Shown here: in pieces, positions 4,269 to 18,051 of the stretch | How the letters are laid out: every line of letters starts with the position of its first letter | Numbering within the stretch: position 1 is the stretch's first letter | Assembly (NCBI RefSeq): GCF_000981785.2 | Contig: NZ_CP011304.1 | Location: 1,470,001 to 1,502,000 of the forward strand | Source: Microcystis aeruginosa NIES-2549 | GTDB taxonomy: Bacteria > Cyanobacteriota > Cyanobacteriia > Cyanobacteriales > Microcystaceae | Direction: 5' to 3' | DNA: 32,000 nt | Position numbers and translations under genes: made by a program | The notes under the pieces: model-generated | What the model saw: the letters and a program-made list of their open reading frames with translations, nothing else | What the model was told of the DNA's origin: nothing | Database searches by the model: none

Positions 4269-4289
4269 GGGAGAGTTGGCAACTCTCCC
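4269..4289. other. Perfect 9-bp stem-loop in the spacer between the PBP-like gene and the response-regulator gene
   Basis: GGGAGAGTT (4269-4277), loop GGC, AACTCTCCC (4281-4289). The T-run lies upstream on the plus strand, so it becomes an A-run after the hairpin on the minus strand. It is therefore not a canonical minus-strand intrinsic terminator. Confidence 0.4.
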
Positions 4290-4312: not shown

Positions 4313-5662
4313 TCAAGGTAAAGCGACAAACTGCTCACCGGAGGGAGTTGATCGCACTTGAATTAAGACCGGTTGACCGATGCGATCGCCAGTATTAGGA
4401 TCAAAGCTAATTTTTCCGGTGGCCCCTGTTTGATGAAAATTGCCGGAGCGCAGCTGGGATTGTAGGCCCTGACGATGGGTATTTTCCCTTAAACCGGCAA
4501 TAATCACCCGTGTAGCGTCAAAACTGGTGGCTGTGCGCCAACTAACCGGACCGCGCCACTGTTCCTGCATAAGATTGGCAAAAGTCTGGTTAACCGAGGG
4601 GTGCCAGGGTGCGGCAAGGGTTAAACCTTGGGCGTTTTTGCCGCCATCTTCGAGGGTGCGAATATTGTAGAGGGTGGGACTACTAAACAGAGGCAAACGC
4701 TGACGATTGGAGCGAATAACCTCAAAAACGGGATCGAGACGATCAATATGAGCGACGACAAATAGGCCGTTAGCACCCCCAGAAATCGCCTGATTAAGGG
4801 CTTGATCGGCCTTAAAATTGGGTACACTCAGATCGCAGACAATCGGCACAATTTGACCGCCTTTTTTCGCCACATTAGCCATCAACTCATCTTTAAAGGA
4901 AATATTATCAGGAGCTTGAGAATCGTAGCAAAAAGCAATTTTCTGGACTTTAGCAGTATTTACTATGTAATTTGCTAAGGTTTCCGTAATTTTGCCGTTA
5001 GAAGCCACCAGACGAAAGATATAATTTCCCGCACCGGAGAGATTATTAGCCAGGGAGGTGGGAGAAATCATCACCAAACCGCCTTTTTCGTAGATGGGAG
5101 CGGCGGCTAAACTGGCATCGGAGGCATTATGACCGATAACAGCGATAATATCGGGATTTTTGACTAATTCACTGGCTACCTCTTTCGATATCTGCGGCTG
5201 ATTATCGTCATTAACCACGATAACCATCAGTTTTCTGCCGTTGATCCCTCCCTGTTGATTGATCTGGGTTTGTGCGCTGGCGACTCCTCGCAATATTTCC
5301 TGAGCGACGTTGGGATTAGTTGTTGCTGGCACAATAACGGCGATTTTGAAGGGATTTGAGCCAGTTTGCAGGTTGCTTAGATAAATTACGCTTTCGGGAT
5401 CGTTGGGATGTTGAGCGAGGGATTTTTGCAGGAGTTGCTCTGCTTCTTGGTGATCACCTTGAGCAATGGCAGCGATCGCTGATTCTTTGGTGGTGTTAGA
5501 ATTAGTTTTGATCAGGAGATGATTGCCGTAACTGATGCGGGGATTATTATCGGCTTTTGGGGCAAATATTGCCAATATTTGGGGAAAAAGAAACCAACCG
5601 ATCAACCCCAGTAAAACATAGGAAATTGGCGGTAAACCCGCTTTTTTGCCAGTCTTTGTCAT
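4313..5662 (-). CDS. Membrane-anchored TPR + type-1 periplasmic binding protein (LivK/Peripla_BP_6-like) sensor/solute-binding protein
   Basis: The N-terminal TM helix is PPISYVLLGLIGWFLFPQILAIF (about nt 5564-5632). A TPR-like segment reads GDHQEAEQLLQKSLAQHPNDPESVIYLSNL. PBP1 motifs are FKIAVIVP, AQEILRGV, IIAVIGHNASDAS, ISPTS and GATGKISFDPNTGD. AAGGAG sits 7 nt upstream of the ATG. Confidence 0.8.
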   Translation of the reverse strand: MTKTGKKAGLPPISYVLLGLIGWFLFPQILAIFAPKADNNPRISYGNHLLIKTNSNTTKESAIAAIAQGDHQEAEQLLQKSLAQHPNDPESVIYLSNLQTGSNPFKIAVIVPATTNPNVAQEILRGVASAQTQINQQGGINGRKLMVIVVNDDNQPQISKEVASELVKNPDIIAVIGHNASDASLAAAPIYEKGGLVMISPTSLANNLSGAGNYIFRLVASNGKITETLANYIVNTAKVQKIAFCYDSQAPDNISFKDELMANVAKKGGQIVPIVCDLSVPNFKADQALNQAISGGANGLFVVAHIDRLDPVFEVIRSNRQRLPLFSSPTLYNIRTLEDGGKNAQGLTLAAPWHPSVNQTFANLMQEQWRGPVSWRTATSFDATRVIIAGLRENTHRQGLQSQLRSGNFHQTGATGKISFDPNTGDRIGQPVLIQVRSTPSGEQFVALP

Positions 5663-5682
5663 CGCTTTACTCCTTAACTTTG

Positions 5683-6393
5683 CTAATTGAATTCGGCTAA
5701 ACGGCGGTTAATTTCGTCATCAAGGCTTAAGAAATCGATTTCTTGAGCTAATTTCTCGCTATAGTTCTCGCTTAATTCACTATAGGCGTTTTCTTTTCGA
5801 TAACGGTCTTTAATCGCTTCATTGGCATCCTCAAAGCGATCGCGGGAGTTATTGAGGTTGAGACTACTATCAAATTCGTTTATTTTGCCTAAAGCCTCAT
5901 TCATGGAACTAATCGCTTTTAAGTTGCTCATTTCTAACTTATAATGCTCGATTTTTTCCTGCTCTTGGCGAAGTTTTTCCTTAGCAGCAATGACTACTTT
6001 TTCGGCATTATCAACCCGATCTTTCATAGCGGGTAGAATTTTTTCTAGGGAGAGAACCTTAACCATAGCTAGTCTTGCCGCTTCTTGAAGACCTTTTTTT
6101 TGAGCGGTGACAGCCTGTTGCAAGTAGTTTGTGTGTTCCTGTTTTTTTGCCTCGTATTGTGCTTGGGCCGATTGCTGGGCCGCTACTACTTGCGCCACCG
6201 ATTCTGTTAATTCCGCTAGGGATTTTTGCATCGATTCTAGGGATTCTTTGGCCGATTCTACGGCAATTTTGCCGCCGGATTCGATGGGAATACCCCACAA
6301 CCAATTCCAGATCGCAACGAGAGAATTTCCTGCCTTATCACCGATCAGCCAAAAAATCAAGGCTTTTGGGGTTAATTTTTTTAACAATTTCAT
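5683..6393 (-). CDS. PspA/IM30-family-like coiled-coil protein with an atypical Trp-rich hydrophobic N-terminus
   Basis: The 236-aa protein is almost entirely heptad-like helix, e.g. ESMQKSLAELTESVAQVVAAQQSAQAQYEAKKQEHTNYLQQAVTAQKKG...AMVKVLSLEKILPAMKDRVDNAEKVVIAAKEKLRQEQEKIEHYKLEMSNLKA...RFEDANEAIKDR...DDEINRRLAEF. By eye it is colinear with the PspA helix layout. GGAG sits 9 nt upstream of the ATG. The family call is by recollection, not computed. Confidence 0.6.
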   Translation of the reverse strand: MKLLKKLTPKALIFWLIGDKAGNSLVAIWNWLWGIPIESGGKIAVESAKESLESMQKSLAELTESVAQVVAAQQSAQAQYEAKKQEHTNYLQQAVTAQKKGLQEAARLAMVKVLSLEKILPAMKDRVDNAEKVVIAAKEKLRQEQEKIEHYKLEMSNLKAISSMNEALGKINEFDSSLNLNNSRDRFEDANEAIKDRYRKENAYSELSENYSEKLAQEIDFLSLDDEINRRLAEFN

Positions 6394-6500
6394 GCCGTTT
6401 GTCTCCTAGAGGTGTTACCTGTTAATTAGGAGCGATGGCTAACTTTAATGCAGTGGATAAGGTTAATTTTTGTAAAAAGTCTTGACAAGGATAGGAAGGT

Positions 6501-9068
6501 TTAGAGTGGACCGGCAGATTTAATGGGAGCGAGGGGGACAAATCGACCATTTTTGACCTGTAGAATCAAGTAGCGGCGATCATCAGGATTATTATTCATG
6601 TTGCGGATACCATTCTCATCGAATCTAACAGTGCCAGTCATTCCTTCAATAGAAAAATCGTTTCTTAAAACTTTATATAATGATTCTCGATCGAATTTTT
6701 GTCCTTGTTGGGATAACTGTCGCAAAGCGGTGAGGATAACTTTGGTCGCATCGTAGGCCATGGGAGTGCGCCAAACATTGATCTTATTTTGCCAAAAACT
6801 GTGGATATAATTATCTTGTTTGAGATCATACCAAGGCACGGGGATAACTAAATTTTCCACCCCCTGTTCACCTTCTGCAAGGGTGAGATAACTTTGAAAA
6901 GTGGGTGAACCTAAAGTTACTAAGTTTAACTGTTGTGCGTGACGTTGCTTAAAGATACTGACGGCTCTTTTCAGATCATTAACATAGGGAGCAACCATGA
7001 GAATATTTACTTGATACTGAGCAATTTTTTGATAAATTTCCTGTTCATCTAAATTATTTTTTGGCTCGATATTGCAGTCAAAATCTGCATCTTTAATGAC
7101 TTTTTGAAAGCGCTGACCGAGGAGAATGTTTTTATATTTTTTAGCGAAGTTATAATTATCCCCAGAGCGATTATCATAACAAATTAAATTAGTGGGGTTT
7201 TGGATAATTAGCTTGTCAGTTTGTTCGCGGATATATTCACTTAAGGTTGTGGCAAAAGTTTCCATATCGGGAACCATTTTATATATATAGCCATTGCCAG
7301 AGATTTTCGAGGAAAAGCTGGTGGGAGATAGGGCCACAATTTTCCCTTGTACATAAATATCTTTGGCCGCTTCACTAGCAGCAGAAGCATTATGACCAAC
7401 CACTGCTATGATTGACGGATCTTTAACAAATTTTTCGGCTCGATCTTTGGCATCTACGCCACTATTATTATCATTAGCGACCACTACCTGTAGAAAGTGA
7501 AAATCGGGGTTTTTGGCCTGTTCATCGTTTAACTCCTGTTGAAATAAAGCAATACCTCGTAAAATTTCTTGAGCAATTTCTGGATTATTACCAATAGGAA
7601 CACTGGTGGCAATTTTTAAGGGATTTCTATCTTGATAGGCCGCACGAGCGTTATTATAATAGATGCGAATCTCTGGATTATTGGGCAAGCGATCAAGGGA
7701 TTTTTTAAAAAGCTGAATTGCTTGTTTATATTCTTTGTTTTTAAAAGCTTGTCTTCCCCGTTCAATCATGTTATCTTGTCGGTTTGTCTTTAATAATATT
7801 TCTTCACCTAAGCTAATTTCTGGGTATTTACTAGCATCATCGGAAAATACTCCTCCCCAATATAAAACTGATAAAGTTACCAGAAGACTTAAAATAAATA
7901 ACAGAGCTTGTTTCCAGCGACTAGATAGACGTAATAACCTTTTATTTTTAGGTAAAATCAACGGTGGTTCTTCAGGATTTTCTATCAAACGAGGCAGCAA
8001 AGAAGAACTAGCAGCATCCACCTCAAATTCGTGTAATTTTAATTCTTGCCGAGCGATTGTTAAGGATTCTTGTAGGGATTTATGTTCAAGAAAATTGGGA
8101 AGAAAAACTTCTAGAAATCTCAAAGCAACCCGCACAGCGATGGGTTCTTTCATAACAATAATATGCGGTACTCCGATATTAGCCAACTGACGACCAATAC
8201 CCAACCCATCGCAGGAGTTACATATAACAAGTTTTAAGCCTTTTTTAACAGCTATTTCTAGGGAATTTCTTAAGTTATGTGCAGGAGATAAAGCCGTATC
8301 ATTATCAATGATAAAAACTCCATCGTGACCGTCGCTACTGGTTTGACTATGACCTAAATAAACTACAATATCCCATTGATTTTTGATCAACTCATTGTGA
8401 ATATTTTTCGTTGAAGGAGGAACGTCTGAACTGGGACTTAATATTTGCATAGAAACCTTATCTTGGTTTCCTAGTGCCGTTTGCAAACTGGATAAACACA
8501 GGGAATTATGCTCGTTTTCGATGTCAATATTACCCAAAATTACTAAAATATTAATCGGAGAAGTCAGGTTAATTATCGGGGGATTTCTCTGGATAGTAAG
8601 AGCAATTTCCACATCAGGACACCATTGGTGTAAAAAATTCCAACACTCCCAGGGAATTTGTTGTAAATCAAAGTGGGTAGTTTGGATAAAAAATCTTACT
8701 TCTGACTTAGTACCTATATGGAACAAGATATGATTTTGTATCGAACTCAGATAACTAGAGTTTAGCCATTCATTTAGGCTATCTTGTAAAGTTTGAGTAG
8801 CTTGTCTCAGGTTGTCTCTAGGATCACCTACCGCTGCATGGGTGATCATACTATGAGGAACGGTAATTCCTAAACTGGGTTGACTTTCTACCCAATGATA
8901 ATAAGCTCGACGATAATTTTGCAAAGCGTCAGCAATGTCAAGGTTAGGGACTAATCTACCCTCCGCAAAAGGTGCTATCAAGAGATGATTGTCACGAATT
9001 TCTAGAGTGACGGAAAATCCCGTCTCAAAACTGCCATCACCAATTTTCAGAATCACAACTCTGCTCAT
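6501..9068 (-). CDS. Multidomain protein: N-terminal module + CHAT (caspase-like cysteine protease) domain, single TM helix, TPR, type-1 periplasmic binding domain
   Basis: The 855-aa ORF starts with ATG. CHAT-like strands and motifs are INILVILG, WDIVVYLGH(240)S, LKLVIC(283)NSC(286)DG and VPHIIVMKEPIAVRVALRFLEVF...SLQESLTIARQEL. The TM helix is ALLFILSLLVTLSVLYWGGV. The TPR segment reads ERGRQAFKNKEYKQAIQLFKKSLDRLPNNPEIRIYYNNA. PBP1 motifs are LKIATSVP, AQEILRGI, IIAVVGHNASAAS, LSPTS and GMTGTVRFDENG. Confidence 0.75.
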   Translation of the reverse strand: MSRVVILKIGDGSFETGFSVTLEIRDNHLLIAPFAEGRLVPNLDIADALQNYRRAYYHWVESQPSLGITVPHSMITHAAVGDPRDNLRQATQTLQDSLNEWLNSSYLSSIQNHILFHIGTKSEVRFFIQTTHFDLQQIPWECWNFLHQWCPDVEIALTIQRNPPIINLTSPINILVILGNIDIENEHNSLCLSSLQTALGNQDKVSMQILSPSSDVPPSTKNIHNELIKNQWDIVVYLGHSQTSSDGHDGVFIIDNDTALSPAHNLRNSLEIAVKKGLKLVICNSCDGLGIGRQLANIGVPHIIVMKEPIAVRVALRFLEVFLPNFLEHKSLQESLTIARQELKLHEFEVDAASSSLLPRLIENPEEPPLILPKNKRLLRLSSRWKQALLFILSLLVTLSVLYWGGVFSDDASKYPEISLGEEILLKTNRQDNMIERGRQAFKNKEYKQAIQLFKKSLDRLPNNPEIRIYYNNARAAYQDRNPLKIATSVPIGNNPEIAQEILRGIALFQQELNDEQAKNPDFHFLQVVVANDNNSGVDAKDRAEKFVKDPSIIAVVGHNASAASEAAKDIYVQGKIVALSPTSFSSKISGNGYIYKMVPDMETFATTLSEYIREQTDKLIIQNPTNLICYDNRSGDNYNFAKKYKNILLGQRFQKVIKDADFDCNIEPKNNLDEQEIYQKIAQYQVNILMVAPYVNDLKRAVSIFKQRHAQQLNLVTLGSPTFQSYLTLAEGEQGVENLVIPVPWYDLKQDNYIHSFWQNKINVWRTPMAYDATKVILTALRQLSQQGQKFDRESLYKVLRNDFSIEGMTGTVRFDENGIRNMNNNPDDRRYLILQVKNGRFVPLAPIKSAGPL
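6504..7622 (-). other. Type-1 periplasmic binding (LivK/ANF-receptor-like) domain of the CHAT protein
   Basis: Residues ~483-855. It shares NP(L/F)KIA, AQEILRG, IIAV(V/I)GHNAS, SPTS, WRT..(Y/F)DAT(K/R)VI and G(M/A)TG..(R/S)FD motifs with the neighbouring 449-aa protein. Confidence 0.7.
7848..7907 (-). other. Single predicted transmembrane helix separating the protease half from the sensor half
   Basis: Residues 388-407 (ALLFILSLLVTLSVLYWGGV) are preceded by the basic stretch KNKRLLRLSSRWKQ. By the positive-inside rule the N-terminal CHAT half should be cytoplasmic. Confidence 0.65.
8034..8561 (-). other. CHAT/caspase-fold domain segment (residues ~170-345) with putative catalytic His240 and Cys286
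   Basis: I checked these codons directly. Plus-strand 8349-8351 = ATG, reverse complement CAT = His240. Plus-strand 8211-8213 = GCA, reverse complement TGC = Cys286. Plus-strand 8220-8222 = ACA, reverse complement TGT = Cys283. Each follows a hydrophobic beta-strand, as in clan-CD proteases. Confidence 0.65.
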
Positions 9069-9100
9069 GTCTCTACCCTTGACATTTTCTGCTATCTCTA

Positions 9101-10465
9101 TTAAATCCTAAACTGTTCGGTAATGCTACTGTCCCCTAAACTTAGGTTAACATTAAAGCGATCGTCGGCATCAGCTAGAAAATAAAGCTGTAGATAGCTA
9201 TCTAAGGGTTTCTCCCTTGCTATTGCTTCTAAACCGGGGATTAATTGGCCTATTTCATCGCTAATTTGCAAAGATAAACCGGGGGGTAGCTTGGCAAAAT
9301 TGTCCATGGCATAGGCACGAATTAAGACAGCAATTCTCTGGTCACTGGTCGATAAAACTCCCACCATTAAAGCAATTTTATAACCCATTAATTGACTACC
9401 CACATCGAGCATTTTACGGATAGCAGCATTGGGATAATGAGGATCAATATTCCAGAGATATTCTGCCGCTTGCCAGCGAATAGTTTCATCTTGGGTTTGA
9501 TGTTGCAGTTTTGCTAAAGCTTCCTCTGGGGTTAAATGTTCCGAAAATTCCACCTCTTTTTGACTAGCATACAGTTGTCTAATTTCTCGCTGAATATCTG
9601 TCGGAGATTCTCGACTGCTGATTTTTTCGGCAGCCAACAAAAAACCCGGATTAATTGGACGATAACTGTCGATGGTGTTAAGGATTTCTTGCCATTTTTC
9701 GCTAATAATTCCCTGCAACCATTGACTAAGTTTAGTGGGGATTACCTCTAAACGCTGCTGATAAAGTTTTTCTCGCCATTGCTGATTATTCAACAAGGCT
9801 AACCACTGCTGAAAACTAATATCTAATCTCGGAGAATAGGGTGAAACTTGACTTAAATTTTTAATTAAATTTTCTGCTGTTACTGGCGATAAATTTGCTA
9901 AATATTCCAGCTTTTCTTTTTCACTCTCTCCCTCTAAACAACTCTGCCAAAGAATATCTAAATCATCAATCATTTGCTCACTGTCCAAATAATATTGATG
10001 GTAAATTGGATCGTATTCTGCGAGATTTTTAACATCTTGTCTGGATATAAAACCCCAGATATTGAGGAATTTTTCTGCTAAATCTACCTGCACCCCTAGA
10101 TAAAAATCCGCCGCTAAATCGGGAATATCAACCCATTCTTGCTCTATTGTCAATCCCTCAATGTCAATAGTTTGACTGGGAATAATAGTAACTTTTTTAT
10201 CTTGAATTTGCCAAGTAAACCCGTTAATAAACTCCCAAAGATACTGATGGTTCTCAGGTATTATTTGAAGGGAACAATCAAGATTATTTTTTAGCCAATT
10301 GCTTAAGCATATTTGCACCAAGTAATTAATCAAGGCCTGATTTTTGGCGGTTTGATTAGAGTATTGACCGAGAATCGATCGAGCTTGTTTAATCTCTGTT
10401 TCCGAAAAAGTTAGCCAAAGGGATTTCGGGTTAATTTGTTGCAAAATATCGAGGTTGACTTTCAT
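9101..10465 (-). CDS. DUF1822-like protein (cyanobacteria-restricted family, function unknown)
   Basis: The 454-aa ORF starts with ATG, with GGAG 5 nt upstream. The N-terminal pattern ...EIKQARSILGQYSNQTAKNQALINYLVQICLSNWLKNN... and the acidic Trp/Gln-rich body match my recollection of DUF1822 proteins. I cannot verify the family assignment here; the CDS itself is solid. Confidence 0.6.
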   Translation of the reverse strand: MKVNLDILQQINPKSLWLTFSETEIKQARSILGQYSNQTAKNQALINYLVQICLSNWLKNNLDCSLQIIPENHQYLWEFINGFTWQIQDKKVTIIPSQTIDIEGLTIEQEWVDIPDLAADFYLGVQVDLAEKFLNIWGFISRQDVKNLAEYDPIYHQYYLDSEQMIDDLDILWQSCLEGESEKEKLEYLANLSPVTAENLIKNLSQVSPYSPRLDISFQQWLALLNNQQWREKLYQQRLEVIPTKLSQWLQGIISEKWQEILNTIDSYRPINPGFLLAAEKISSRESPTDIQREIRQLYASQKEVEFSEHLTPEEALAKLQHQTQDETIRWQAAEYLWNIDPHYPNAAIRKMLDVGSQLMGYKIALMVGVLSTSDQRIAVLIRAYAMDNFAKLPPGLSLQISDEIGQLIPGLEAIAREKPLDSYLQLYFLADADDRFNVNLSLGDSSITEQFRI

Positions 10466-10487
10466 GGTATCTCCTAATAGATTAGAT

Positions 10488-11627
10488 TTAAGTTAAGTAG
10501 GACTGACAAAAATATTCTAGATAAGCATCGATCTCTTGTTTTTGCCGAGATTCTAATTTAATCTCATTTAACAACTTAGGACAATCTTTGCCTTCCCTTG
10601 CAGAGAGTAGCTGATAAATTTTTTTACATAATTGGGTTATTTCTCGACTAATAGTAGATGAATGAACTCCCAATCGATTAGCGATCTGTGCTTGCGTCAT
10701 TTTTTGATGATAGTAACAATATACAATCTGTTTAACTTCCTCCTCAAGAGTGATTAATAACTTATTAATATCTTCCTGGATTTCTTGTTGTAGTAAATCG
10801 TTACTTGGCTTTTTGCTGGGGAGATTTTCCCAAAAGTAATTGCTATCATGTTCATAATTAGTAGGCTCAAATTTAGAGTAAGAAGGATCGATATGATTAC
10901 GCATTATCTCCCCTATTTGATTGAGTTTTGCTTGCACTTCCTCCACGGTGAAAATAACTTGCGGTTGTAACTGCCGTAGGCGATCAATTACCTGTTGCCA
11001 ATCCTCCCATTGCCATTTATCCAATGATCTAAGAGAAGCTTTTTTTTCCTCTCGAAAACAGTTAAATATTAGCAGATAATTCTCGTTAAAGATACCTGAT
11101 GTTCGTAAAACTTTTTGAATTTTATTCGCACTAAAAAGACTGACTATACCGAGATTAGTCCTGCCGATAGTTTTATACTCTCCTCGCAGGAAATTATAGA
11201 GAGTATTTCTCAATTTTTTATCTGTCCATTTTTCTAAGATTAAGCGAAAAAATCCCAGTTTGGCCTTGTTATCCTGAAAATTACCGTAAAAATTGCTAGG
11301 ATTATTAATGATTGCCGCAGAAAGCAAATTCAGCAAATAGTAGAAGAGGGTTTCATAATCGGCATCGATCCGATGGCCAACATTTTGATAGACCCTTTGA
11401 GTTACTATAGAGGAGCGATATTGTAAAAAAACCATCCAATGAGACTTGACTAATTGGTTATTAGGCTCATTCTGTAACCATTGCCACAGATAGAGATATA
11501 CCGCTTCATCATTGGCAACCTTTCCAGCGATCGCCTCGATCGATCTTCTTAATTGTGGCACTTCGCACCAGAAAACTCGATCGCCTTCCATGGCTTTAAT
11601 AGTAGTATAAAAGTACCTAACGCTCAT
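10488..11627 (-). CDS. Atypical sigma-70-family-like protein (only a region-4 HTH is recognisable)
   Basis: The ORF track start at 11636 is GTG; the first ATG is at 11627 (MSVRYFY...). The C-terminal segment IVYCYYHQKMTQAQIANRLGVHSSTISREITQLCKKIYQLL resembles a sigma region 4.2 HTH. The ~290 residues upstream have no region-2 motif I can recognise by eye. Confidence 0.6.
   Translation of the reverse strand: MSVRYFYTTIKAMEGDRVFWCEVPQLRRSIEAIAGKVANDEAVYLYLWQWLQNEPNNQLVKSHWMVFLQYRSSIVTQRVYQNVGHRIDADYETLFYYLLNLLSAAIINNPSNFYGNFQDNKAKLGFFRLILEKWTDKKLRNTLYNFLRGEYKTIGRTNLGIVSLFSANKIQKVLRTSGIFNENYLLIFNCFREEKKASLRSLDKWQWEDWQQVIDRLRQLQPQVIFTVEEVQAKLNQIGEIMRNHIDPSYSKFEPTNYEHDSNYFWENLPSKKPSNDLLQQEIQEDINKLLITLEEEVKQIVYCYYHQKMTQAQIANRLGVHSSTISREITQLCKKIYQLLSAREGKDCPKLLNEIKLESRQKQEIDAYLEYFCQSYLT
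10602..10760 (-). other. Sigma region-4-like helix-turn-helix segment
   Basis: Residues ~293-345: LLITLEEEVKQIVYCYYHQKMTQAQIANRLGVHSSTISREITQLCKKIYQLL. Confidence 0.55.
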
Positions 11628-11872
11628 CTCTATCACCGGCTACAGGTATCTGCTATCTGATTAGGTAAAAACCGAGGATTTTTTGCAAGAGTAGCAAATA
11701 AATTCAGTGATTCCCTTGCCAAGCGCACCTCTTTCTCTGACAATAGATGAGGGACTGATGAGAAACTATCAGTTATAGTGAGACAGCCTTAGCAACCCAG
11801 TAAAAGACTCGTAAATTCACTCTGAGCTGCCACAAATAGCCGTCATATCAACTTCTAGGACAAAAATTAGGA

Positions 11873-12967
11873 ATGCGAGTAACTTTTACCGAAAATCAGG
11901 GTTTTAGAAAGGAATTGAATAAACGGGTTGATGCTTATTTTACCGAAAACGGCATCCCCACCAGAGATAATTTTGCCATGTACCTGAAGACGATGACGAT
12001 TTTAACTTGGGTAATTGCCGCTTGGCTATTTGTGCTTTTTGGTCCAGATATCTGGTGGCTAAAAATTATCGGTTGCATGGTTTTAGGGGGAGGATTAGCA
12101 GGAATCGGTTTTAGCATTGGTCATGATGCAAACCATGGCGGCTATTCTAGTAAAAAATGGGTTAACTCTCTCCTTGGCATGACCTACGATTATATCATCG
12201 GTACTTCCAGTTATATCTGGCGTTTTCGTCATAATTATCTCCATCACACCTACACCAATGTTTTAGGGTACGATGTGGAAATTCACGGCGATGGTGTGGT
12301 GCGAATGACTCCCCATGCCGAGCATAAATGGTATCATCGTTATCAACATTTATTTATCCCGATTCTCTACGCTATAATCCCTATCTATTGGTCATTCTCC
12401 GATGTGCGCTCCATCCTCTTTCGTCATCGTTTTTGCGAGATTAAAATTCCCAATCCTAAACCGATCGATATATTCGTTTTATTGAGCGGAAAAGTTGTCT
12501 ATCTCTTTTGGTTTATTGGCATTCCTCTCTTAGTTGGTTATAGTACCCTAGAAATAGCGTTCGGTTTTCTAATTGCTTTTATGACCTATGGATTGCTTGC
12601 CTGTCATGTATTTATGTTAGCTCACGTTTTGGAACCTGCCGAATTTATTCAACCCTCGGAAACCAACCAAATCGAAGACGAATGGGCAATTTTTCAAGTG
12701 CGAACTACCGTGGATTTTGCTCCTAAAAATGCTTTTTTAAATTGGTATTTAGGGGGATTAAATTATCAAGTAGTCCACCATCTTTTCCCGAAAATTTGCC
12801 ATGTTCACTACCCTAAAATTGCCACAATTTTAGCGGAAGTTTGCCAAGAATTTGGCGTTAATTATGCCGTTTATCCCACCTTCTGGGGGGCTTTAGCTTA
12901 TAATTATCTTTGGCTCAGACAATTAGGCAATAAACAGAGTAATTTCGATCTCAAGTTAGCCAGCTAA
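11873..12967 (+). CDS. desD: Acyl-lipid (front-end, Delta6-type) fatty-acid desaturase
   Basis: The three His boxes are GHDANHGGY, HNYLHH and QVVHHLFP. From FTENQGFRKELNKRVDAYF to the C-terminus it is colinear with my recollection of Synechocystis DesD (Delta6). The regiospecificity comes from remembered similarity, not from a computation. Confidence 0.85.
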   Translation: MRVTFTENQGFRKELNKRVDAYFTENGIPTRDNFAMYLKTMTILTWVIAAWLFVLFGPDIWWLKIIGCMVLGGGLAGIGFSIGHDANHGGYSSKKWVNSLLGMTYDYIIGTSSYIWRFRHNYLHHTYTNVLGYDVEIHGDGVVRMTPHAEHKWYHRYQHLFIPILYAIIPIYWSFSDVRSILFRHRFCEIKIPNPKPIDIFVLLSGKVVYLFWFIGIPLLVGYSTLEIAFGFLIAFMTYGLLACHVFMLAHVLEPAEFIQPSETNQIEDEWAIFQVRTTVDFAPKNAFLNWYLGGLNYQVVHHLFPKICHVHYPKIATILAEVCQEFGVNYAVYPTFWGALAYNYLWLRQLGNKQSNFDLKLAS

Positions 12968-12968
12968 A

Positions 12969-13130
12969 TATCAGTTATCAGTTATCAGTTACCAGTTATC
13001 AGGTGTGAGTTATCAGTTATCAGATGTAAGTTTTAAGTTAATTAGTTAGTTAGTTATCTTTATCTTTATACCTGTTTACTGTTTACTGATCACTATTTAC
13101 CGATTACTGATTACTGATCACTGATCACTG
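12969..13130. repeat. Heptanucleotide tandem-repeat tract forming an imperfect long palindrome (desD-pgsA spacer)
   Basis: The left arm has TATCAGT/TACCAGT units (12969-13030). An AT-rich centre contains TTAGTTAGTTAGTTATCTTTATCTTTA. The right arm has ACTGAT(T/C)/TTTACTG units (13071-13130), the reverse-complement motif of the left arm. Confidence 0.85.
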
Positions 13131-13134
13131 AAAA

Positions 13135-13650
13135 ATGAACCTACCCAACTCGATTACCCTATCGCGACTCTTGGGACTGCCATTGATATTATACTGGTTG
13201 CACCAAGGCACAGACATCGATCGCTGGTTAAGTTTAATTATCTTTCTGATTGCTGCCAGCACCGATTGGCTCGATGGTTATCTAGCGCGAAAATTGAATC
13301 AAATCACCGAATTAGGTAAATTTCTTGATCCTTTGGTCGATAAATTGCTGGTTCTTGCTCCCCTCTTGGCTCTCATTGAAATGGATTTAATTGCTGCTTG
13401 GGGAGTCTTTTTGATTCTTGCCCGCGAATTAGCGATCGCTGGTTGGCGCATTAATCCCAATTTAACGGGAAATAGCGACATAAAAGGGGCTAATTGGTGG
13501 GGAAAAAGCAAAACAGTCAGCCAGATTATCGCTATCGCTCTCTTAATTGCTCCCTTGCCCTCTGAATACAACTTGATTGCTCAGTTCGCTTTTTGGCTAT
13601 CAGTAACATTAACCTTAATTTCTGGTCTGATTTATGTCACACAAAGGTGA
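13135..13650 (+). CDS. pgsA: CDP-diacylglycerol--glycerol-3-phosphate 3-phosphatidyltransferase
   Basis: The CDP-alcohol phosphatidyltransferase motif is DWLDGYLARKLNQITELGKFLDPLVDKL (D-x2-DG-x2-AR...G-x3-D-x3-D). The 171-aa protein is multi-TM. Confidence 0.9.
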   Translation: MNLPNSITLSRLLGLPLILYWLHQGTDIDRWLSLIIFLIAASTDWLDGYLARKLNQITELGKFLDPLVDKLLVLAPLLALIEMDLIAAWGVFLILARELAIAGWRINPNLTGNSDIKGANWWGKSKTVSQIIAIALLIAPLPSEYNLIAQFAFWLSVTLTLISGLIYVTQR

Positions 13651-13689
13651 CATTAACTTTAATTTCTGGTGTGATTTATGTCACACAAA
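13606..13689 (+). repeat. Tandem 40-bp duplication of the pgsA 3' end (period 44 bp, 2 mismatches)
   Basis: Copy 1 (13606-13645) is ACATTAACCTTAATTTCTGGTCTGATTTATGTCACACAAA. Copy 2 (13650-13689) is ACATTAACTTTAATTTCTGGTGTGATTTATGTCACACAAA. Each copy is followed by its own TGA. Confidence 0.9.
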
Positions 13690-13764
13690 ATTGATAAAAA
13701 TTTGACCAAATGTAAAATAACGAACATTAGCAATAATTTGCGGAGACAAATCGAGAGAATGGGG

Positions 13765-13791
13765 TTGCATTTTTTTTTCTTGGTATATAAT
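13765..13791 (+). promoter_or_regulatory. Candidate sigma-70-type promoter for the RTX-like gene
   Basis: TTGCAT (13765-13770) is followed by a 15-nt T-rich spacer and TATAAT (13786-13791). An alternative reading is an extended -10, TGGTATATA (13781-13789). It lies ~60 nt upstream of ATG 13850. This is motif evidence only. Confidence 0.3.
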
Positions 13792-13849
13792 GGTCGGGAG
13801 AAAGATTGTCAAAATCTTCGAGTGCAAACATACCATTTAAAGAAAAACT

Positions 13850-15286
13850 ATGTCTTCCATCACCACTATCACTACTGCTACTTCCTACACCACTGGTTTT
13901 AGTCTCGCTGTTGGTGACTATCTCTTCGTTCAGAATTTATTGGCTGCCAAGCCTTTTCTCGCTGTGTCTATGGTGCAGTCGACTGCTGTACCCGGACTTA
14001 ATCTCACTGCCATGGGCGGTGGCTTTTGGAGGTTACGCAACGGAACGACCAATGATGTTAACGGAACGCTTTCCGCGTACCGACAACCCTTTTCTTATGA
14101 GTTTCTTCTGCCAGCAGGTACTGATACCTATGTTTCAAGTCCTTATACGACCGCCACTCATATACTACAAATCGACACTACCAGAATCACAAAAGCCAAC
14201 AAGACCGGAACATTTTCGATAGGTCTCCCCAGTGGACTAGTCCTCAGCGATCACTATAGCATTTCAGGTGGCGGTGGAGACGATACCCTAACTGGTCGCA
14301 ATGGAAACGATACCCTAGATGGTGGGGATGGAAACGATGTCCTGTCGGGTCTCTCTAATGACGATAACCTGTTGGGTGCTCAAGGAGACGATAGCCTGTT
14401 CGGTGGCGATGGGAACGATAACCTAGACGGTGGCGATGGGAACGATAGCCTGGACGGTGGCAATGGGGACGATAGCCTGTTCGGTGGCGATGGGGACGAT
14501 ATCCTGGACGGTGGAGACGGAAACGATGCCCTGGACGGTGGCCAAGGAGGCGATACCTTCCAAATCACCTCAGGCAGCGACACAATTTCGGATCTTGGTA
14601 TCGGCCCCGATGTGTTGGTTGTTTCTGCCGGCGCAACGGTGACTGCAAGCTTGACGGCACCATGGACAGCGTCTTCATTGACTAGCAATAACGGCAATGC
14701 AACCATCAGTACGGGGGGTGTTTCCCTCGACCTAAGTGCAGCGGGCGGTTCATCGGGATGGACGGTCAACATTAGCATTAGTGGTGCCAATATCACTGGC
14801 TCCGCTAATGCAGACACCATCACTGGTGGGGGTGGAGGCGATGGCCTCACTGGTAACAATGGAAACGATAGCCTGGTTGGTGGGGGTGGAAACGATACCC
14901 TCACTGGTGGGGGTGGAAACGATACCCTCACTGGTGGTACTGGTACTGACCGTTTTATTTTCAATAGTCCTAGCGAAGGCATTGACACCATCACCGATTT
15001 TACCATCGCCGCCGGCAGCAATCAGGATTCCATCCGAGTTTCTGCCAGTGGTTTCGGTGGTGGACTGACTGGCTCTGCCGGAGGAACTGTTTTGCCTACT
15101 GCACAATTTCTCTCCGGTTCGGGAGCTACTAGCGCTGCTACTGCAGCTCAGAGATTCATCTATAACACCAATAATGGTGGTTTATGGTTTGACGTCGATG
15201 GTGTTGGTGGCACTGCTTCGGTTCAAATCGCAACCCTTACCGGTTCGCCGGCCCTAACTGCAGCCAGGATTACGGTTATTGCCTAA
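13850..15286 (+). CDS. RTX-type (hemolysin-type calcium-binding repeat) secreted protein
   Basis: There are two blocks of GGxGxDxL/F nonapeptides, e.g. GGGGDDTLTGRNGNDTLDGGDGNDVLSG...GGDGNDNLDGGDGNDSLDGGNGDDSLFGGDGDDILDGGDGNDALDGGQGGDTF, and later GGGGGDGLTGNNGNDSLVGGGGNDTLTGGGGNDTLTGGTGTDRFIF. The C-terminal segment RFIYNTNNGGLWFDVDGVGG...IATLTG is typical of cyanobacterial RTX-like proteins. Confidence 0.85.
   Translation: MSSITTITTATSYTTGFSLAVGDYLFVQNLLAAKPFLAVSMVQSTAVPGLNLTAMGGGFWRLRNGTTNDVNGTLSAYRQPFSYEFLLPAGTDTYVSSPYTTATHILQIDTTRITKANKTGTFSIGLPSGLVLSDHYSISGGGGDDTLTGRNGNDTLDGGDGNDVLSGLSNDDNLLGAQGDDSLFGGDGNDNLDGGDGNDSLDGGNGDDSLFGGDGDDILDGGDGNDALDGGQGGDTFQITSGSDTISDLGIGPDVLVVSAGATVTASLTAPWTASSLTSNNGNATISTGGVSLDLSAAGGSSGWTVNISISGANITGSANADTITGGGGGDGLTGNNGNDSLVGGGGNDTLTGGGGNDTLTGGTGTDRFIFNSPSEGIDTITDFTIAAGSNQDSIRVSASGFGGGLTGSAGGTVLPTAQFLSGSGATSAATAAQRFIYNTNNGGLWFDVDGVGGTASVQIATLTGSPALTAARITVIA
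14402..14563 (+). repeat. Six in-frame 27-nt tandem units inside the RTX CDS (a second, perfect 2x27-nt duplication lies at 14879-14932)
   Basis: Units start at 14402, 14429, 14456, 14483, 14510 and 14537 (GGTGGCGATGGGAACGATA(A/G)CCT(A/G)GAC and variants). GGTGGGGGTGGAAACGATACCCTCACT is repeated exactly at 14879-14905 and 14906-14932. Confidence 0.9.
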
Positions 15287-15450
15287 TCTATCCCTGTCCA
15301 TCCCCTGCGGTGGGTTGGGCAGTTGTGTATTTTTGGTGTAAAATCAGGCCACTGGAAATAATCTCTGCGGGTGTGTTAGCTAGGGCTAGGATACCCTTAT
15401 TATCTGGGAAGTGGGCAGTGGGGGAGATTCAGCGGCTCTCTCACTCTTTG

Positions 15451-15565
15451 TGTGATACTAAATCCCTTGAGTATAGGCTACATATCAGGACAGGCAAAAG
15501 GCAGGAGGCAATAGGCAAAAGCGGAAATAAATAATCAGTCTTTAATAACTGGATTTAGTGTGATA
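15451..15565. mobile_element. MITE-like 101-bp insertion: 8-bp terminal inverted repeats flanked by a 7-bp direct duplication
   Basis: TGTGATA (15451-15457) | CTAAATCC (15458-15465) ... GGATTTAG (15551-15558) | TGTGATA (15559-15565). The interior carries the purine-rich core CAGGCAAAAGGCAGGAGGCAATAGGCAAAAGCGG (15491-15524). There is no ORF. Confidence 0.45.
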
Positions 15566-15679
15566 AGTTTAACTTGTATAAGAGCGATCAATCTTTGTGT
15601 TCTCTGTGTCTCTGTGGTTTCTTCCACCAATCTTAAGGATAGACGGTTAAAATGGGTCTGAGCTTGAGAGTCATTGGGA

Positions 15680-17932
15680 TTAGTTTTGTGTAGTGATTAA
15701 CTGACGGTGATAATCGCCCCATAACCGGGCTGCCTGTTGACTACTGCCGGAAGTGGGAGAATTATTATCATTCCCTAACCAAATACCTGTCACCCAGTCG
15801 CGACGGGGAAGATAACCGATAAACCAGAGATCCACATAATTATTAGTAGTTCCCGTTTTACCCGCTTCTCCCATGCCAATACTAGCAGCGCCTCCCGTAC
15901 CATTAGTTATCACCCCCCGCAATAAGCTATTCATCGTCTCGGCGGTTTTAGGGGAGATTACCTGCTGATTTCTCTCGTTATCCTCGCCATAGTCATAAAT
16001 AACCCGACAGGTACTCAAATCCTCCAGATTTTCACAGTCGGAAGCGTCGAGAATGCGTTTAATGGCGTGGGGACGATTCCAGCGCCCACCGTGGTCAAAA
16101 ACCCCATAAGCGCCAGTCATTTCCAAGACATTTACCTCGCTTTGCCCTAAAATTAGCCCCGGTACAGGATTTAAAGGTGATTTCACCCCCAAACGTTCCG
16201 CTACATTGACCACATTGCTTAATCCTGCCTCGCGAGCAATGCGAAGGGCGACGCTATTTTCCGATTGCGCTAAACCTTGAAACATATTGACCCCCCCGCT
16301 GCTGCGTTCACAGGGAGAATAGGCCTGTCCTTGCCAAGAAAGTCCCGCGCAGGTATAGGTTTTATAGGGCGATATTCCCTTTTCTAGGGCGGCAACATAA
16401 GCAAATACCTTAAAAGTGGAACCGGGTTGACGTTTAGCTTGGATAGCGCGGTTAAATTGGCTTTTTTGATAGTCAACTCCCCCGACTAAAGCGAGAATTT
16501 CCCCGGTTTGACTGTTTAGGGTAACTAAAGCTCCTTGGGAGTATCGATAGCGGGGTCCTTGGTTTAAGACATTATTTTTTAAGCTTTTTTCTGCGATCGC
16601 TTGCAGCCGGCGGTCTAAACTGGTTTCAACGATAAAATTGCCTTCTTTCGCCACTTCTTCCCCTAAAAGGTCCTGTAATTCCTCGAAAACGTAACTATAA
16701 AAATATGGTGCAATCGTACTGGATAGGGATTTTTTGGCTTGGGGACTGATTTCAATGCGGGATCTGCGGGCGCTGGCCGCCGCTTCTGGGGAAATCATGC
16801 CTAATTGGGCCATGCGATCGATGACACGATTACGATATTGTACGGAAGTGTCGTAATCTTGAATGGGATTAAATAAATTCGGGGCGGGTAACATAGCCAC
16901 AAGGGTGGCAGCCTCCGAGATATCTAAATCTCTAGCGGATTTATCGAAATAAAAGCGGGCCGCATCTTCAAAACCGTAACCGGCCAAACCGAGATAAACT
17001 CGATTGAGATAGGTTTTGAGAATTTCATCCTTACTATACACCGCTTCTAATTGTAGGGCGACCACAGCCTCCCGGAGTTTGCGATCGGCAGTATTTTGGC
17101 GACCGACTTCGGGGAATAAACTACGCGCTAACTGTTGAGTTAGGGTACTGGCCCCTTGACGAATGCCTTGACCTTGCCAATTAATCATAACAGCCCGGAC
17201 AATCCCCAAAGGATCGATGCCAAAATGCCAGTAAAACCGACTATCTTCGGAAGCGACAACCGCCTTGGGCAAATAGGGAGAAAAATCGCCCAGATTATCT
17301 AATTCTCGGTGAGTTTCCTGTCGAATGGGATTGAGGGGAGTTTGACCATCCCTAGCATAAACCACCACCGGACCGCTCACCCCGGAAGGGAGTGGATAAA
17401 CATTAACTCTACGACTTTCCCAGATAATCCCTAGAACTAATAAACCGAAAATACCACCCGCACCATAGAAACCATAGCGCAAAAGTCGCGCCCACAGGGG
17501 AGGGGGACAATAATAGGAGATGGTGACACAATTGGCTAAGTCTGGGGGGGCCAGAGTAAAAGTATCACCATGACGCAGGGAAACGCTTTTCAGACGACGT
17601 TTACCCATATAAACCCCGTTAGTGGAGTTTTCATCTGTGAGCAGGAAATTATGGGGATTTTTCGGGTCACGCTGTAGGGAACAATGAATCTGACTGACCA
17701 CGCTATTACGGATAGTAATATCACAGGAACTGGAACTACGACCTAACAAATAGCGATCGCCAATGAGGGGATATTTGCTTTCCCCGGTGCCATTCTCGTT
17801 TTTAAGGCGTAATTCAGGAACTCTCGCCCCTTTTTTGAGATTTACCGCCTGAAAATTCACCTTTCCTTGCAATTTCTGCACTGCAACGGTGACAAGTTGA
17901 CTAATTTGGGTTTTCGGCGACTGGTTAGACAT
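15680..17932 (-). CDS. Class A penicillin-binding protein (glycosyltransferase GT51 + transpeptidase) with an N-terminal cytoplasmic FHA domain
   Basis: The FHA domain (about nt 17558-17770) reads YLLGRSSSSCDITIRNSVVSQIHCSL...NSTNGVYMGKRRL...GDTFTL. The TM helix is GGIFGLLVLGIIW. GT51 motifs are ASEDSRFYWHFGIDP and GASTLTQQLAR. Transpeptidase motifs are GSTFK, SENS and KTGTT. Confidence 0.9.
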   Translation of the reverse strand: MSNQSPKTQISQLVTVAVQKLQGKVNFQAVNLKKGARVPELRLKNENGTGESKYPLIGDRYLLGRSSSSCDITIRNSVVSQIHCSLQRDPKNPHNFLLTDENSTNGVYMGKRRLKSVSLRHGDTFTLAPPDLANCVTISYYCPPPLWARLLRYGFYGAGGIFGLLVLGIIWESRRVNVYPLPSGVSGPVVVYARDGQTPLNPIRQETHRELDNLGDFSPYLPKAVVASEDSRFYWHFGIDPLGIVRAVMINWQGQGIRQGASTLTQQLARSLFPEVGRQNTADRKLREAVVALQLEAVYSKDEILKTYLNRVYLGLAGYGFEDAARFYFDKSARDLDISEAATLVAMLPAPNLFNPIQDYDTSVQYRNRVIDRMAQLGMISPEAAASARRSRIEISPQAKKSLSSTIAPYFYSYVFEELQDLLGEEVAKEGNFIVETSLDRRLQAIAEKSLKNNVLNQGPRYRYSQGALVTLNSQTGEILALVGGVDYQKSQFNRAIQAKRQPGSTFKVFAYVAALEKGISPYKTYTCAGLSWQGQAYSPCERSSGGVNMFQGLAQSENSVALRIAREAGLSNVVNVAERLGVKSPLNPVPGLILGQSEVNVLEMTGAYGVFDHGGRWNRPHAIKRILDASDCENLEDLSTCRVIYDYGEDNERNQQVISPKTAETMNSLLRGVITNGTGGAASIGMGEAGKTGTTNNYVDLWFIGYLPRRDWVTGIWLGNDNNSPTSGSSQQAARLWGDYHRQLITTQN

Positions 17933-17938
17933 AGTTTT

Positions 17939-18000: not shown

Positions 18001-18051
18001 ATTTCAACTAAAATCCCAACACCCTAAAACCCCAATTCATCCCCAATATCC

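Follow-up and report, generated by a model that had tools for sequence, protein, structure and literature searches.

A sigma-DUF1822-CHAT protease cassette and a PspA-like/anchored binding-protein pair side by side in Microcystis aeruginosa NIES-2549: two predicted signaling modules

The closest described relatives of the system analyzed here come from a comparative genomics study (Kaur, Iyer, Burroughs, Aravind, eLife 2021, PMC8195603). The parts of that article and its supplement consulted here describe proteins that join an EACC2 domain and a caspase domain to a variable C-terminal sensor, with gene neighborhoods that mostly contain a sigma factor and DUF1822. The variable C-terminus is given there as either extracellular, with transmembrane (TM) helices, or intracellular, and the proposal is that a stimulus activates the protease and that the sigma factor acts in the final, transcriptional step. 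In the supplement, many members of the 'DUF1822 family' are annotated as (helical-region/HTH/EAD4+)TRADD-N+TPRs encoded beside EACC2+CASPASE+variable genes, and the work, in these parts, is comparative genomics only. Two further precedents, both experimental, are Csx29 (TPR-CHAT), which cleaves Csx30, a protein that binds the sigma factor RpoE (PMC9825189), and CalpL, which cleaves CalpT and leads to the release of CalpS, together with PCaspase, which cleaves a putative sigma factor, PCc-sigma (bioRxiv 10.1101/2023.06.23.546230). Here we report a computational analysis of a five-gene cluster encoded within a 32,000-nt stretch of Microcystis aeruginosa NIES-2549 (contig NZ_CP011304.1, positions 1,470,001 to 1,502,000; hereafter the window), whose products are a sigma-like protein, a DUF1822 protein, a CHAT protease fused to a periplasmic binding protein (PBP) domain, a PspA-like protein and a second, membrane-anchored PBP.

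On balance, we favor the reading that this cluster consists of two juxtaposed signaling modules with shared sensor-domain ancestry, a predicted ligand-gated protease-sigma triad and a separate PspA-like/PBP dyad. Coordinates are positions in the window, all five open reading frames (ORFs) lie on the minus strand, and counts outside Microcystis refer to loci with enough flanking room. The five ORFs are:

10488-11636, minus strand: sigma-like ORF, 382 aa from the GTG at 11636 (379 aa from the ATG at 11627, as in the public record)
9101-10465, minus strand: DUF1822 ORF, 454 aa
6501-9068, minus strand: CHAT-TM-TPR-PBP ORF, 855 aa
5683-6393, minus strand: PspA-like ORF, 236 aa
4313-5662, minus strand: TM-TPR-PBP ORF, 449 aa

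A profile search of the five proteins bore out every family assignment made in the original prediction, the Pfam scores exceeding the gathering cut-offs in each case.

The sigma-DUF1822-CHAT triad

Judged by sequence, the triad (11636-6501) is a Peripla_BP_6-tailed variant, with a new tail, of the published, computationally defined cassette. The original prediction had stated that the composition of the cluster matches no described system; this is wrong for the triad, since 'EACC2-caspase + sigma + DUF1822' neighborhoods are present in the consulted parts of PMC8195603. Our comparison was based on 80 DUF1822 loci, whose ORFs were searched with iterated hidden Markov models (HMMs) seeded from the window proteins. 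The sigma-like gene, with which the triad opens, was found directly upstream of DUF1822 and on the same strand in 71/71 non-Microcystis loci, and a CHAT-module gene was located at most 1 kb downstream of DUF1822 in 52 of 62. DUF1822 homologs are essentially all cyanobacterial, and scanning a single genome for each species gave at least 575 confirmed matches.

As far as the consulted parts of PMC8195603 go, its systems resemble the triad in having a constant alpha+beta N-terminal domain followed by a caspase/CHAT domain and a variable sensor, with TM segments if the sensor is extracellular; in the position of the sigma/HTH (helix-turn-helix) and DUF1822 genes just upstream; and in their restriction to cyanobacteria, and our neighborhood counts agree. 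Unlike the triad and its surroundings, they are described in those parts with no mention of a PBP tail or a PspA neighbor. In addition, the sigma factor is called 'ECF' (extracytoplasmic function) there, whereas its family looks group-3-like and is 380-640 aa long here, and DUF1822 is referred to there as a 'TPR protein' or as 'TRADD-N+TPRs', whereas the AlphaFold2 (AF2) model obtained here ends in a beta-sandwich.

The third gene encodes the predicted protease. Its product is organized as follows:

8649-9068, minus strand: constant N-terminal domain, residues 1-~140, presumed EACC2, found in all CHAT homologs beside DUF1822
8034-8561, minus strand: CHAT/caspase-like domain, residues ~170-345 (Pfam CHAT at residues 215-343)
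7848-7904, minus strand: single TM helix, residues 389-407 (Kyte-Doolittle score 2.17 in a 19-residue window), preceded by the K/R-rich KNKRLLRLSSRWK
7629-7766, minus strand: periplasmic TPR-like stretch (Pfam TPR matches below cut-off)
6597-7493, minus strand: Peripla_BP_6/LivJ-like domain (Pfam), the combined TPR-PBP part being 6597-7766

The 855-aa protein matches Pfam CHAT with 29.9 bits (cut-off 24; up to 60.6 bits among its homologs), Peripla_BP_6 with 49.2 bits over profile positions 43-330 of 343, and ANF_receptor with 34.7 bits; its TPR matches all fall below cut-off, the best being TPR_19 (21.2 bits vs 25). The predicted catalytic dyad, His240 (codon 8349-8351) and Cys286 (codon 8211-8213; both checked by translation), had been proposed from the window alone and proved to be invariant in 72/72 homologs, within the motifs 'GHS' and 'NSCDG'. 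The CHAT profile match and these residues predict a clan CD caspase-like peptidase. The N-terminal domain, with conserved positions G12, G17, F18, W101, P139 and W140, is presumed to be EACC2 from its position, size and context, the comparison being with the published description only; Pfam and NCBIfam scans gave no EACC2 match, these sets having no EACC2 model. Across the same 72 homologs, the N-terminal ~370 residues are constant and the tails differ, CHASE2 being the commonest and NACHT/STAND, nSTAND1+GUN4, DUF928 and PBP tails also occurring. The closest solved relatives of the PBP tail in the window protein are 4mlc and branched-chain amino-acid binding proteins.

The topology proposed originally, with the N-terminus inside and the PBP domains outside, was supported by a single TM segment at residues 389-407 after the K/R-rich stretch and by the N-terminal anchor at residues ~10-34 of the 449-aa protein. 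The K/R-rich stretch and the single TM segment thus predict a cytoplasmic protease half and place both PBP domains in the periplasm.

The first gene of the triad encodes the sigma-like protein, which has two recognizable parts:

11157-11435, minus strand: divergent sigma region-2-like segment, residues ~68-160, seen at the family-profile level only
10617-10754, minus strand: sigma region 4 helix-turn-helix, residues 295-340 (Pfam Sigma70_r4; coordinates verified by translation)

The Sigma70_r4 match scores 30.4 bits over residues 295-340. In an NCBIfam scan of the five proteins, the generic sigma-70 superfamily model TIGR02937 was the only addition above cut-off, and it alone passes for the sigma-like protein (49.6 bits, residues 215-343 only). 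In the family profile (A2), positions 80-155 match region 2 of solved sigma factors and positions 305-357 match their region 4, with SigF and FliA as the best matches in the PDB, followed by SigA and RpoS. Members are 380-640 aa long, and a second region-4-like repeat that is frequent in the family is absent from the Microcystis copy. The family is best classified, from these profile matches, as a genuine sigma-70-family lineage that is nearer to group 3 than to ECF. The description 'sigma-like HTH' was therefore right about the helix-turn-helix of region 4 and too modest as a label, because the family profile matches regions 2 and 4. Assignment to the ECF factors (group 4) was rejected: the window protein has 382 aa against the compact ~170-220 aa of that group, no ECF subfamily model passed, and SigF/FliA are the best matches.

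The second gene encodes the DUF1822 protein (PF08852; 231.3 bits, E = 2.4e-68), in which residues 21-452 align with profile positions 4-369 of 370. The AF2 model (predicted local distance difference test score, pLDDT, 81.7) shows an alpha/beta N-terminal domain, a helical middle that contains a disordered loop at residues ~255-287, and the C-terminal beta-sandwich. No TM segment is predicted by Kyte-Doolittle analysis, in keeping with a soluble partner. No match to Pfam TRADD_N was obtained at E <= 0.1, and no TRADD structure was present among the top Foldseek matches of the model. We regard this protein as a candidate adaptor or anti-sigma-like partner.

Our analysis also identified a second class of DUF1822 cassette (L159:1833-5605; L167-L171, ~6000-10200), in which a short HTH protein (237-273 aa, with '...RQKALNRLL...QLPGIY...' and weak HTH/region-4 matches) and a short DUF1822 protein (~300-318 aa) accompany a CHAT::PBP_like_2 fusion of ~700-750 aa. 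This class is very common in Nostocales, Oscillatoriales and Chroococcales. Among the best 120 of 3407 matches, PBP_like_2 was present in 120/120, together with CHAT in 119, and such proteins are often labeled 'phosphate ABC transporter substrate-binding protein' at NCBI. Other loci carry two to four tandem CHAT::Peripla_BP_6 paralogs after a single sigma-DUF1822 pair (L010, L012, L014, L016 and L026, at ~11200-21400, downstream of DUF1822). The first copy of each array belongs to a PBP clade of its own, and the third copy in L016 has the 'solo' type of PBP that is normally partnered with PspA. Finally, L054:11195-14873 encodes a 999-aa CHAT::Peripla_BP_6 protein followed by a 248-aa PBP_like_2 ORF (with a 68-nt overlap of the ORF calls) and has no PspA-like gene.

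The PspA-like and anchored binding-protein dyad

The last two genes (6393-4313) are, from the conservation of their pairing and motifs, best described as a separate, widely conserved cyanobacterial module. A metagenome scan added 79 PspA-like loci to this comparison, and identical proteins and Microcystis were removed before counting. An anchored PBP is encoded directly downstream of the PspA-like gene in 47/48 non-Microcystis loci (40 PBP_like_2 and 7 Peripla_BP_6), L155 being the sole locus of the 48 with no PBP partner. In 43 of these 47 dyads no triad lies within the flank. Examples of both partner types are:

Kamptonema (L082, L083): partner of the PspA-like protein PBP_like_2; no triad nearby
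Nodosilinea (L084): partner PBP_like_2; no triad nearby
Leptolyngbya (L086): partner Peripla_BP_6; no triad nearby
Fischerella (L087): partner Peripla_BP_6; complete five-gene cluster

The original prediction treated the five genes as a single unit in which the PspA-like protein buffers the membrane for the protease. The first part does not stand, as most dyads have no CHAT, DUF1822 or sigma gene nearby, and the second is not required by the data, the dyad being an independent module. The gene-neighborhood comparison that had been suggested thus gave a divided answer, with co-occurrence of the sigma-like, DUF1822 and CHAT genes supported and a general tie of the PspA/PBP pair to the CHAT cassette not supported, the pair being mostly separate.

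Two conserved segments, one in each protein, distinguish the dyad:

6271-6357, minus strand: Trp-rich N-terminal segment IFWLIGDKAGNSLVAIWNWLWGIPIESGG of the PspA-like protein, standing in place of helix alpha-0; consensus 'WNWLWGIPxESGG'
5561-5635, minus strand: N-terminal anchor LPPISYVLLGLIGWFLFPQILAIFA of the 449-aa protein, a ~22-residue hydrophobic stretch at residues ~10-34; family consensus GPPPIVFIL...

The 236-aa PspA-like protein matches Pfam PspA_IM30 with 46.6 bits (cut-off 33.9), and the alignment of the family profile (A3) with Vipp1/PspA structures starts at helix alpha-1, at Vipp1 residues ~26-30 (E = 8.5e-13, ~180 residues). Its AF2 model contains a confident hairpin at residues 40-175. 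The sublineage is tight, with 61% mean column identity and at least 209 homologs. Helix alpha-0 is the usual membrane anchor of PspA-family proteins (PMC13051332); in its place, all 23 diverse members compared share W29, W31, L32, G34, P36, E38 and G40. The N-terminus (residues 1-42) is hydrophobic with a low helical moment, and the Trp-rich segment reaches a pLDDT of only ~40 when modeled alone. A canonical TM or amphipathic helix is not supported for this region by its sub-threshold Kyte-Doolittle score, low helical moment and low AF2 confidence.

The 449-aa partner matches Peripla_BP_6 with 121.7 bits over profile positions 2-338 of 343, TPR_19 with 25.5 bits, and also ANF_receptor, and its closest solved relatives are 4mlc and LivJ/LivK. 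A '(K/R)xGPPPIVFIL'-type anchor is present in 47/47 non-Microcystis PBPs partnered with PspA, across two PBP superfamilies, and is absent from the TM segment of all 16 CHAT::PBP fusions inspected. A 'PPL(I/V/F)' motif of CHAT proteins was considered as a version of this anchor and rejected, as it lies ~20 residues before the TM segment and is the conserved end of the CHAT module.

Both PBP domains of the cluster resemble LivJ/LivK (HAAT) PBPs and ANF-receptor-type sensors, in that each matches Peripla_BP_6 and ANF_receptor and has Leu/Ile/Val-binding proteins as its nearest structures. Unlike LivJ/LivK proteins, they are TM-anchored and carry a TPR region ahead of the PBP. A role as the substrate-binding component of an ABC transporter was rejected, since no permease or ATPase genes are present in the 21-kb locus and the anchors span ~22 residues; the only transport gene there is an unrelated SBP_bac_5, ~8 kb beyond the sigma-like gene. 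The TM anchor, the TPR region and the lack of ABC permease and ATPase genes nearby thus make these PBPs look like sensors and not transport components.

The dyad shares with PspA/Vipp1/LiaH systems (PspA-PspBC, LiaH-LiaI) the PspA_IM30 hairpin core and an adjacent gene for a membrane protein of small footprint that may act as a recruiter; LiaI recruits LiaH. It differs from them in the replacement of alpha-0 by an invariant Trp-rich segment and in having as partner a PBP with a 'PPPIxFI' anchor. Unlike in canonical Psp/Lia operons, pspB/pspC/pspF and liaI/liaF/liaSR were not found in the gene table of the locus. We found no description of a PspA-PBP pairing in the literature, of which our coverage was incomplete, and none is present in the consulted parts of the text and supplement of a comparative-genomics survey of the phage shock protein (PSP) system (PMC11237479). 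The dyad is thus apparently an undescribed partner arrangement for the PspA family.

Linkage of the two modules and their genomic surroundings

The relationship between the TM-TPR-PBP parts of the CHAT protein and the 449-aa protein, which were proposed to be paralogs, is upheld by 34% identity over 417 aa, with the juxtamembrane and TPR parts included. In a neighbor-joining tree, the CHAT-tail and solo PBPs form old sister clades; the 449-aa protein is placed in the solo clade, and one CHAT protein, from L016, has a solo-type PBP.

Within the window, the ORF list confirms that the five ORFs are consecutive, with gaps of 22, 32, 107 and 20 nt. GGAG motifs were also confirmed 5 nt upstream of the DUF1822 ATG, 9 nt upstream of the PspA-like ATG and 7 nt upstream of the ATG of the 449-aa ORF, and the Shine-Dalgarno candidate of the CHAT gene is no more than a weak purine-rich stretch. 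The tight spacing and these motifs fit co-translation of the sigma-like protein and DUF1822. The same five-gene order is present in 6/7 other Microcystis species-level genomes (the exception being L006) and in 20 metagenome contigs, and this recurrence indicates that the ORFs did not come to lie in this order by chance. The DUF1822 proteins of the nearest Microcystis genomes share 94-96% identity with that of the window.

Outside Microcystis, triads with an adjacent dyad were found in L009, L013 and L015 in the genome set and in L087, L108 and L116 in other searches, the taxa with both modules together being Microcystis, Fischerella (L087), Iningainema (L015) and a Chroococcidiopsis metagenome-assembled genome (MAG). 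The dyad is downstream of the triad in Microcystis, L009 (2.2 kb away), L015, L087 and L108, and upstream in L013 and L116. Among DUF1822-centered lineages, adjacency to a dyad occurs only with a Peripla_BP_6 CHAT tail (4/12 vs 0/62 for other tails, Fisher p = 4e-4); Microcystis is counted once in this comparison, and the lineages are non-independent, all of them falling in a single DUF1822 clade whose members are 43-45% identical to the window protein. The dyad is absent from the remaining 8 of 12 Peripla_BP_6-tailed lineages.

One feature of interest lies at the boundary between the modules, and another lies beyond the last gene:

6394-6500, minus strand: 107-nt spacer at the triad/dyad boundary, the largest gap of the cluster
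4269-4289, strand unassigned: hairpin GGGAGAGTT-GSC-AACTCTCCC, perfect, 9-bp, GC-rich, 24 nt past the last stop codon

Neither a consensus promoter nor a terminator was found in the 107-nt spacer. Relatives differ at this junction, which measures 76 nt in L087 and 2.2 kb in L009; L013 has its dyad on the upstream side. The hairpin is terminator-like on the plus strand, where it has a T-run, and the minus strand continues as C5A6, with no T-run. The T-run side is the plus strand, yet no plus-strand gene ends nearby, and the function of the hairpin is uncertain.

These data bear on an alternative in which the five genes form a single integrated system and one operon, with the 449-aa protein as a co-receptor or decoy that heterodimerizes with the CHAT-PBP protein and the PspA-like protein protecting or remodeling the membrane or serving as substrate. 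Type-1 PBP receptor domains commonly act as dimers, and PBP-tailed loci that lack the dyad often encode two to four tandem CHAT::PBP paralogs, as might be expected if a second PBP partner were needed. The shared strand, the short gaps and the lack of a minus-strand terminator-like site at the junctions are compatible with this idea, as are the order kept in Microcystis, Fischerella (L087), MAG099 (L009), Iningainema (L015) and L108 and the finding that, of the DUF1822 cassettes, those beside a dyad all have a PBP as CHAT tail. However, a triad is missing from the flank of 43/47 non-Microcystis dyads, and a dyad is missing from 8/12 Peripla_BP_6 lineages and 5/5 PBP_like_2 cassettes. Where both occur, the dyad may be upstream (L013, L116), divergent (L159) or at a distance of 2.2 kb (L009). 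In the window, the boundary between the modules coincides exactly with the largest gap, and the Microcystis strain of L006 retains the triad with no dyad. We therefore consider a single integrated system unlikely.

A second alternative gives the adjacency a purely historical basis, the CHAT tail having arisen by duplication and fusion of the dyad PBP gene and the linkage persisting by inertia or joint horizontal transfer. The sister relationship of the two PBP clades (34% identity) and the confinement of all dyad-linked triads to one DUF1822 clade are in line with such an origin, and L016 shows that a solo-type PBP can fuse to a CHAT module. The same is true of the outcome for L159, from a Nostoc MAG, in which HTH, DUF1822 and CHAT::PBP_like_2 genes are divergent from PspA-like and PBP_like_2 genes. 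This locus, the sole PBP_like_2 adjacency, suggested a rule by which the sensor types of the two modules co-vary, and the rule was rejected, as the dyad was present in 0/5 CHAT::PBP_like_2 cassettes within 8 kb (test loci from Scytonema, Rivularia, Microcoleus, Okeania and Chroococcus; such fusions are common). The failed co-variation and the restricted linkage mean that the adjacency could go back to one ancestral juxtaposition, perhaps one that accompanied the duplication from which the CHAT tail arose. Nevertheless, the duplication is old, and linkage is still seen in Chroococcales, Nostocales and a Chroococcidiopsis MAG, surviving local rearrangement; L159, with PBP_like_2 in both partners, is an independent juxtaposition. 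We hold purely historical adjacency as a possible, tentative alternative to two juxtaposed signaling modules, whose functional coupling we regard as plausible, though with no more than moderate support.

Three loci related to the cluster have irregular genes. In Microcystis sp. LSC13-02 (L006:11398-14894), the CHAT product is shorter, at 792 aa, neither the PspA-like nor the PBP gene is present, and the response regulator gene follows ~400 nt on, which looks like a deletion of the dyad plus the end of the CHAT gene. In Iningainema tapete (L015:11633-14953), the CHAT::PBP protein is split into 621 + 210 aa and the PspA-like protein into 112 + 80 aa, the cluster being otherwise intact, and these are possibly pseudogenes or sequencing errors. 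Lastly, in L170:4884-6022 a CHAT::PBP6 gene and a solo PBP6 gene flank two near-identical 145-aa ORFs, in each of which an unusual N-terminus (VYLVYFISVISTYAIRRLDLGEYSLF...) is fused to a C-terminal fragment of Peripla_BP_6, a pattern suggestive of PBP genes broken up by a repeated insertion or duplication.

The flanking genes had been described as a desaturase on one side and a response regulator on the other, and Pfam searches agree, the regulator being of the OmpR type. Adjacency of both to the cluster is conserved within Microcystis only, and the response regulator was rejected as a member of the system for this reason. These surroundings are relevant to a further alternative, a conflict or programmed-cell-death system in which CHAT is a death or immunity effector that acts on an invader or damage signal and PspA answers membrane damage. 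The consulted parts of PMC8195603 group EACC2-caspase/TRADD-N systems with apoptosis-immunity networks, sister cassettes bear NACHT/STAND tails, cassettes are multi-copy and clustered in L034, L047 and L064, and CHAT proteases take part in CRISPR type III-E and III-B defense. Against this, a search of the five proteins with PADLOC gave no meaningful match (weak HTH and coiled-coil noise), the sensor is a periplasmic LivJ-type domain of the nutrient-binding, small-molecule kind, and a dedicated sigma factor points to regulation and not to killing. Moreover, the site between housekeeping genes is fixed in 7/7 other Microcystis species genomes and in the Microcystis metagenome contigs that reach it, and there is no clear compositional shift relative to the flanks, unlike in a mobile defense island. 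We judge this explanation improbable.

Elsewhere in the window, the public gene call at 1-1174 on the minus strand (seen in L001:19292-21365) is a DNA gyrase B with an intein, a Pfam Intein_splicing match lying between GyrB domains. In addition, 13850-15286 encodes a 478-aa Gly/Asp-rich protein with hemolysin-type calcium-binding repeats, with a G+C content of 0.53 vs ~0.39 in its neighbors.

Proposed mechanism and significance

Returning to the reading of two juxtaposed signaling modules, we infer the following sequence of events. A periplasmic ligand would bind the LivJ-type domain of the CHAT protein and switch on the cytoplasmic His240/Cys286 protease. The protease would then cut either DUF1822, in the role of adaptor or anti-sigma-like holder, or the sigma factor's own extension, and cleavage would free the dedicated group-3-like sigma factor for transcription of its regulon. 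The underlying logic, from extracytoplasmic ligand to cytoplasmic caspase-like protease to sigma factor, was already part of the original prediction and can, in general terms, be counted as correct; a stimulus-activated protease acting on transcription is proposed in the consulted parts of PMC8195603. In the dyad, a periplasmic solute might act through the anchored PBP, which would bring the PspA-like protein to the membrane or gate it there through contact between the PBP anchor and the Trp-rich N-terminus of the PspA-like protein, by a logic like that of LiaI-LiaH or PspBC-PspA. The dyad would thus provide a membrane-level output parallel to the transcriptional output of the triad. Since both PBP domains are old paralogs, the modules of the Microcystis lineage probably respond to related ligands.

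The proposed triad resembles type III-E Craspase (PMC9825189) in combining a signal-controlled CHAT protease, a dedicated sigma factor and a linking protein whose fold is otherwise unknown. Craspase is triggered by target RNA via Cas7-11, whereas the trigger here would be a ligand of the periplasmic binding domain, and the protease is membrane-anchored here. Furthermore, no cas genes are present in the locus, no Csx30-type protein was found among the DUF1822 matches, and there is no homology beyond CHAT. Membership in type III-E Craspase was rejected on the lack of cas genes and on PADLOC results limited to weak HTH matches. With CalpL-CalpT-CalpS and classical ECF sigma/anti-sigma cascades, the triad would share the path from signal to protease, to loss of the partner that holds the sigma factor, and on to transcription. 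The protease is a predicted clan CD cysteine protease here, versus Lon or site-1/site-2 proteases there; and in contrast to a membrane anti-sigma factor, DUF1822 is, from its lack of a predicted TM segment, cytoplasmic and soluble. No homology was found.

Several results weigh against this reading, in addition to the failed co-variation and the possible single ancestral juxtaposition set out above. The window sigma-like protein has, on its own, no Pfam region-2 match and only a degenerate motif, 'KYDP..S.LKTYA', and may, with such a region 2, be unable to work as a sigma factor. For DUF1822, sequence comparison with the PDB gave no solved relative, and a Foldseek search with the model gave nothing below E = 1e-3 and Ig-like partial matches only; its identification as a Csx30-like, anti-sigma-like or TPR protein was rejected on the lack of PDB/Foldseek matches and on its beta-sandwich end. 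No conserved cleavage site was found in the candidate substrates, and the DUF1822 loop at ~255-287 was rejected as one, being an insertion confined to the Peripla_BP_6 clade. In the dyad, AF2 gave no confident structure for the N-terminus of the PspA-like protein. A promoter and terminator scan for operon boundaries gave no clear signals, and no minus-strand terminator-like site was found at any junction. What the sequences show is the gene order, the domain content, the catalytic residues, the topology, how conserved each module is and that the dyad is independent; gating by a ligand, the choice of substrate, release of the sigma factor, contact of the PspA-like protein with the anchor and any cross-talk are predictions.

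A more far-reaching idea, which we put forward tentatively and consider rather doubtful as a whole, is that the dyad represents a new ligand-controlled class of ESCRT-III-like system in cyanobacteria. The PBP would govern recruitment or polymerization of PspA via an intramembrane 'WNWLWGIP'-'GPPPIVFIL' contact, and in Microcystis and its relatives the sensor would also have been captured by a sigma-controlling protease, such that one cue leads to both outputs.

The sigma/DUF1822/CHAT cassette is abundant and cyanobacteria-specific, with the at least 575 confirmed matches noted above and thousands of CHAT homologs. If the proposed mechanism is true, it would constitute a third protease route to sigma release, beside regulated intramembrane proteolysis and the CRISPR-linked Craspase/Calp systems, and one in which the protease is wired to ordinary environmental sensor domains. 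The PspA-like/anchored-PBP pair is an apparently new, highly conserved partner class for the PspA/Vipp1 family and provides a handle on how a bacterial ESCRT-III-like assembly could be triggered with neither PspBC/F nor an ATPase. What makes these observations valuable is mainly that both modules are readily testable and that the apparently unreported dyad is so widespread. In Microcystis, the ligand of the LivJ-type sensor is open to direct screening, and nutrient and envelope signaling in this bloom-forming, toxin-producing host is of practical interest.

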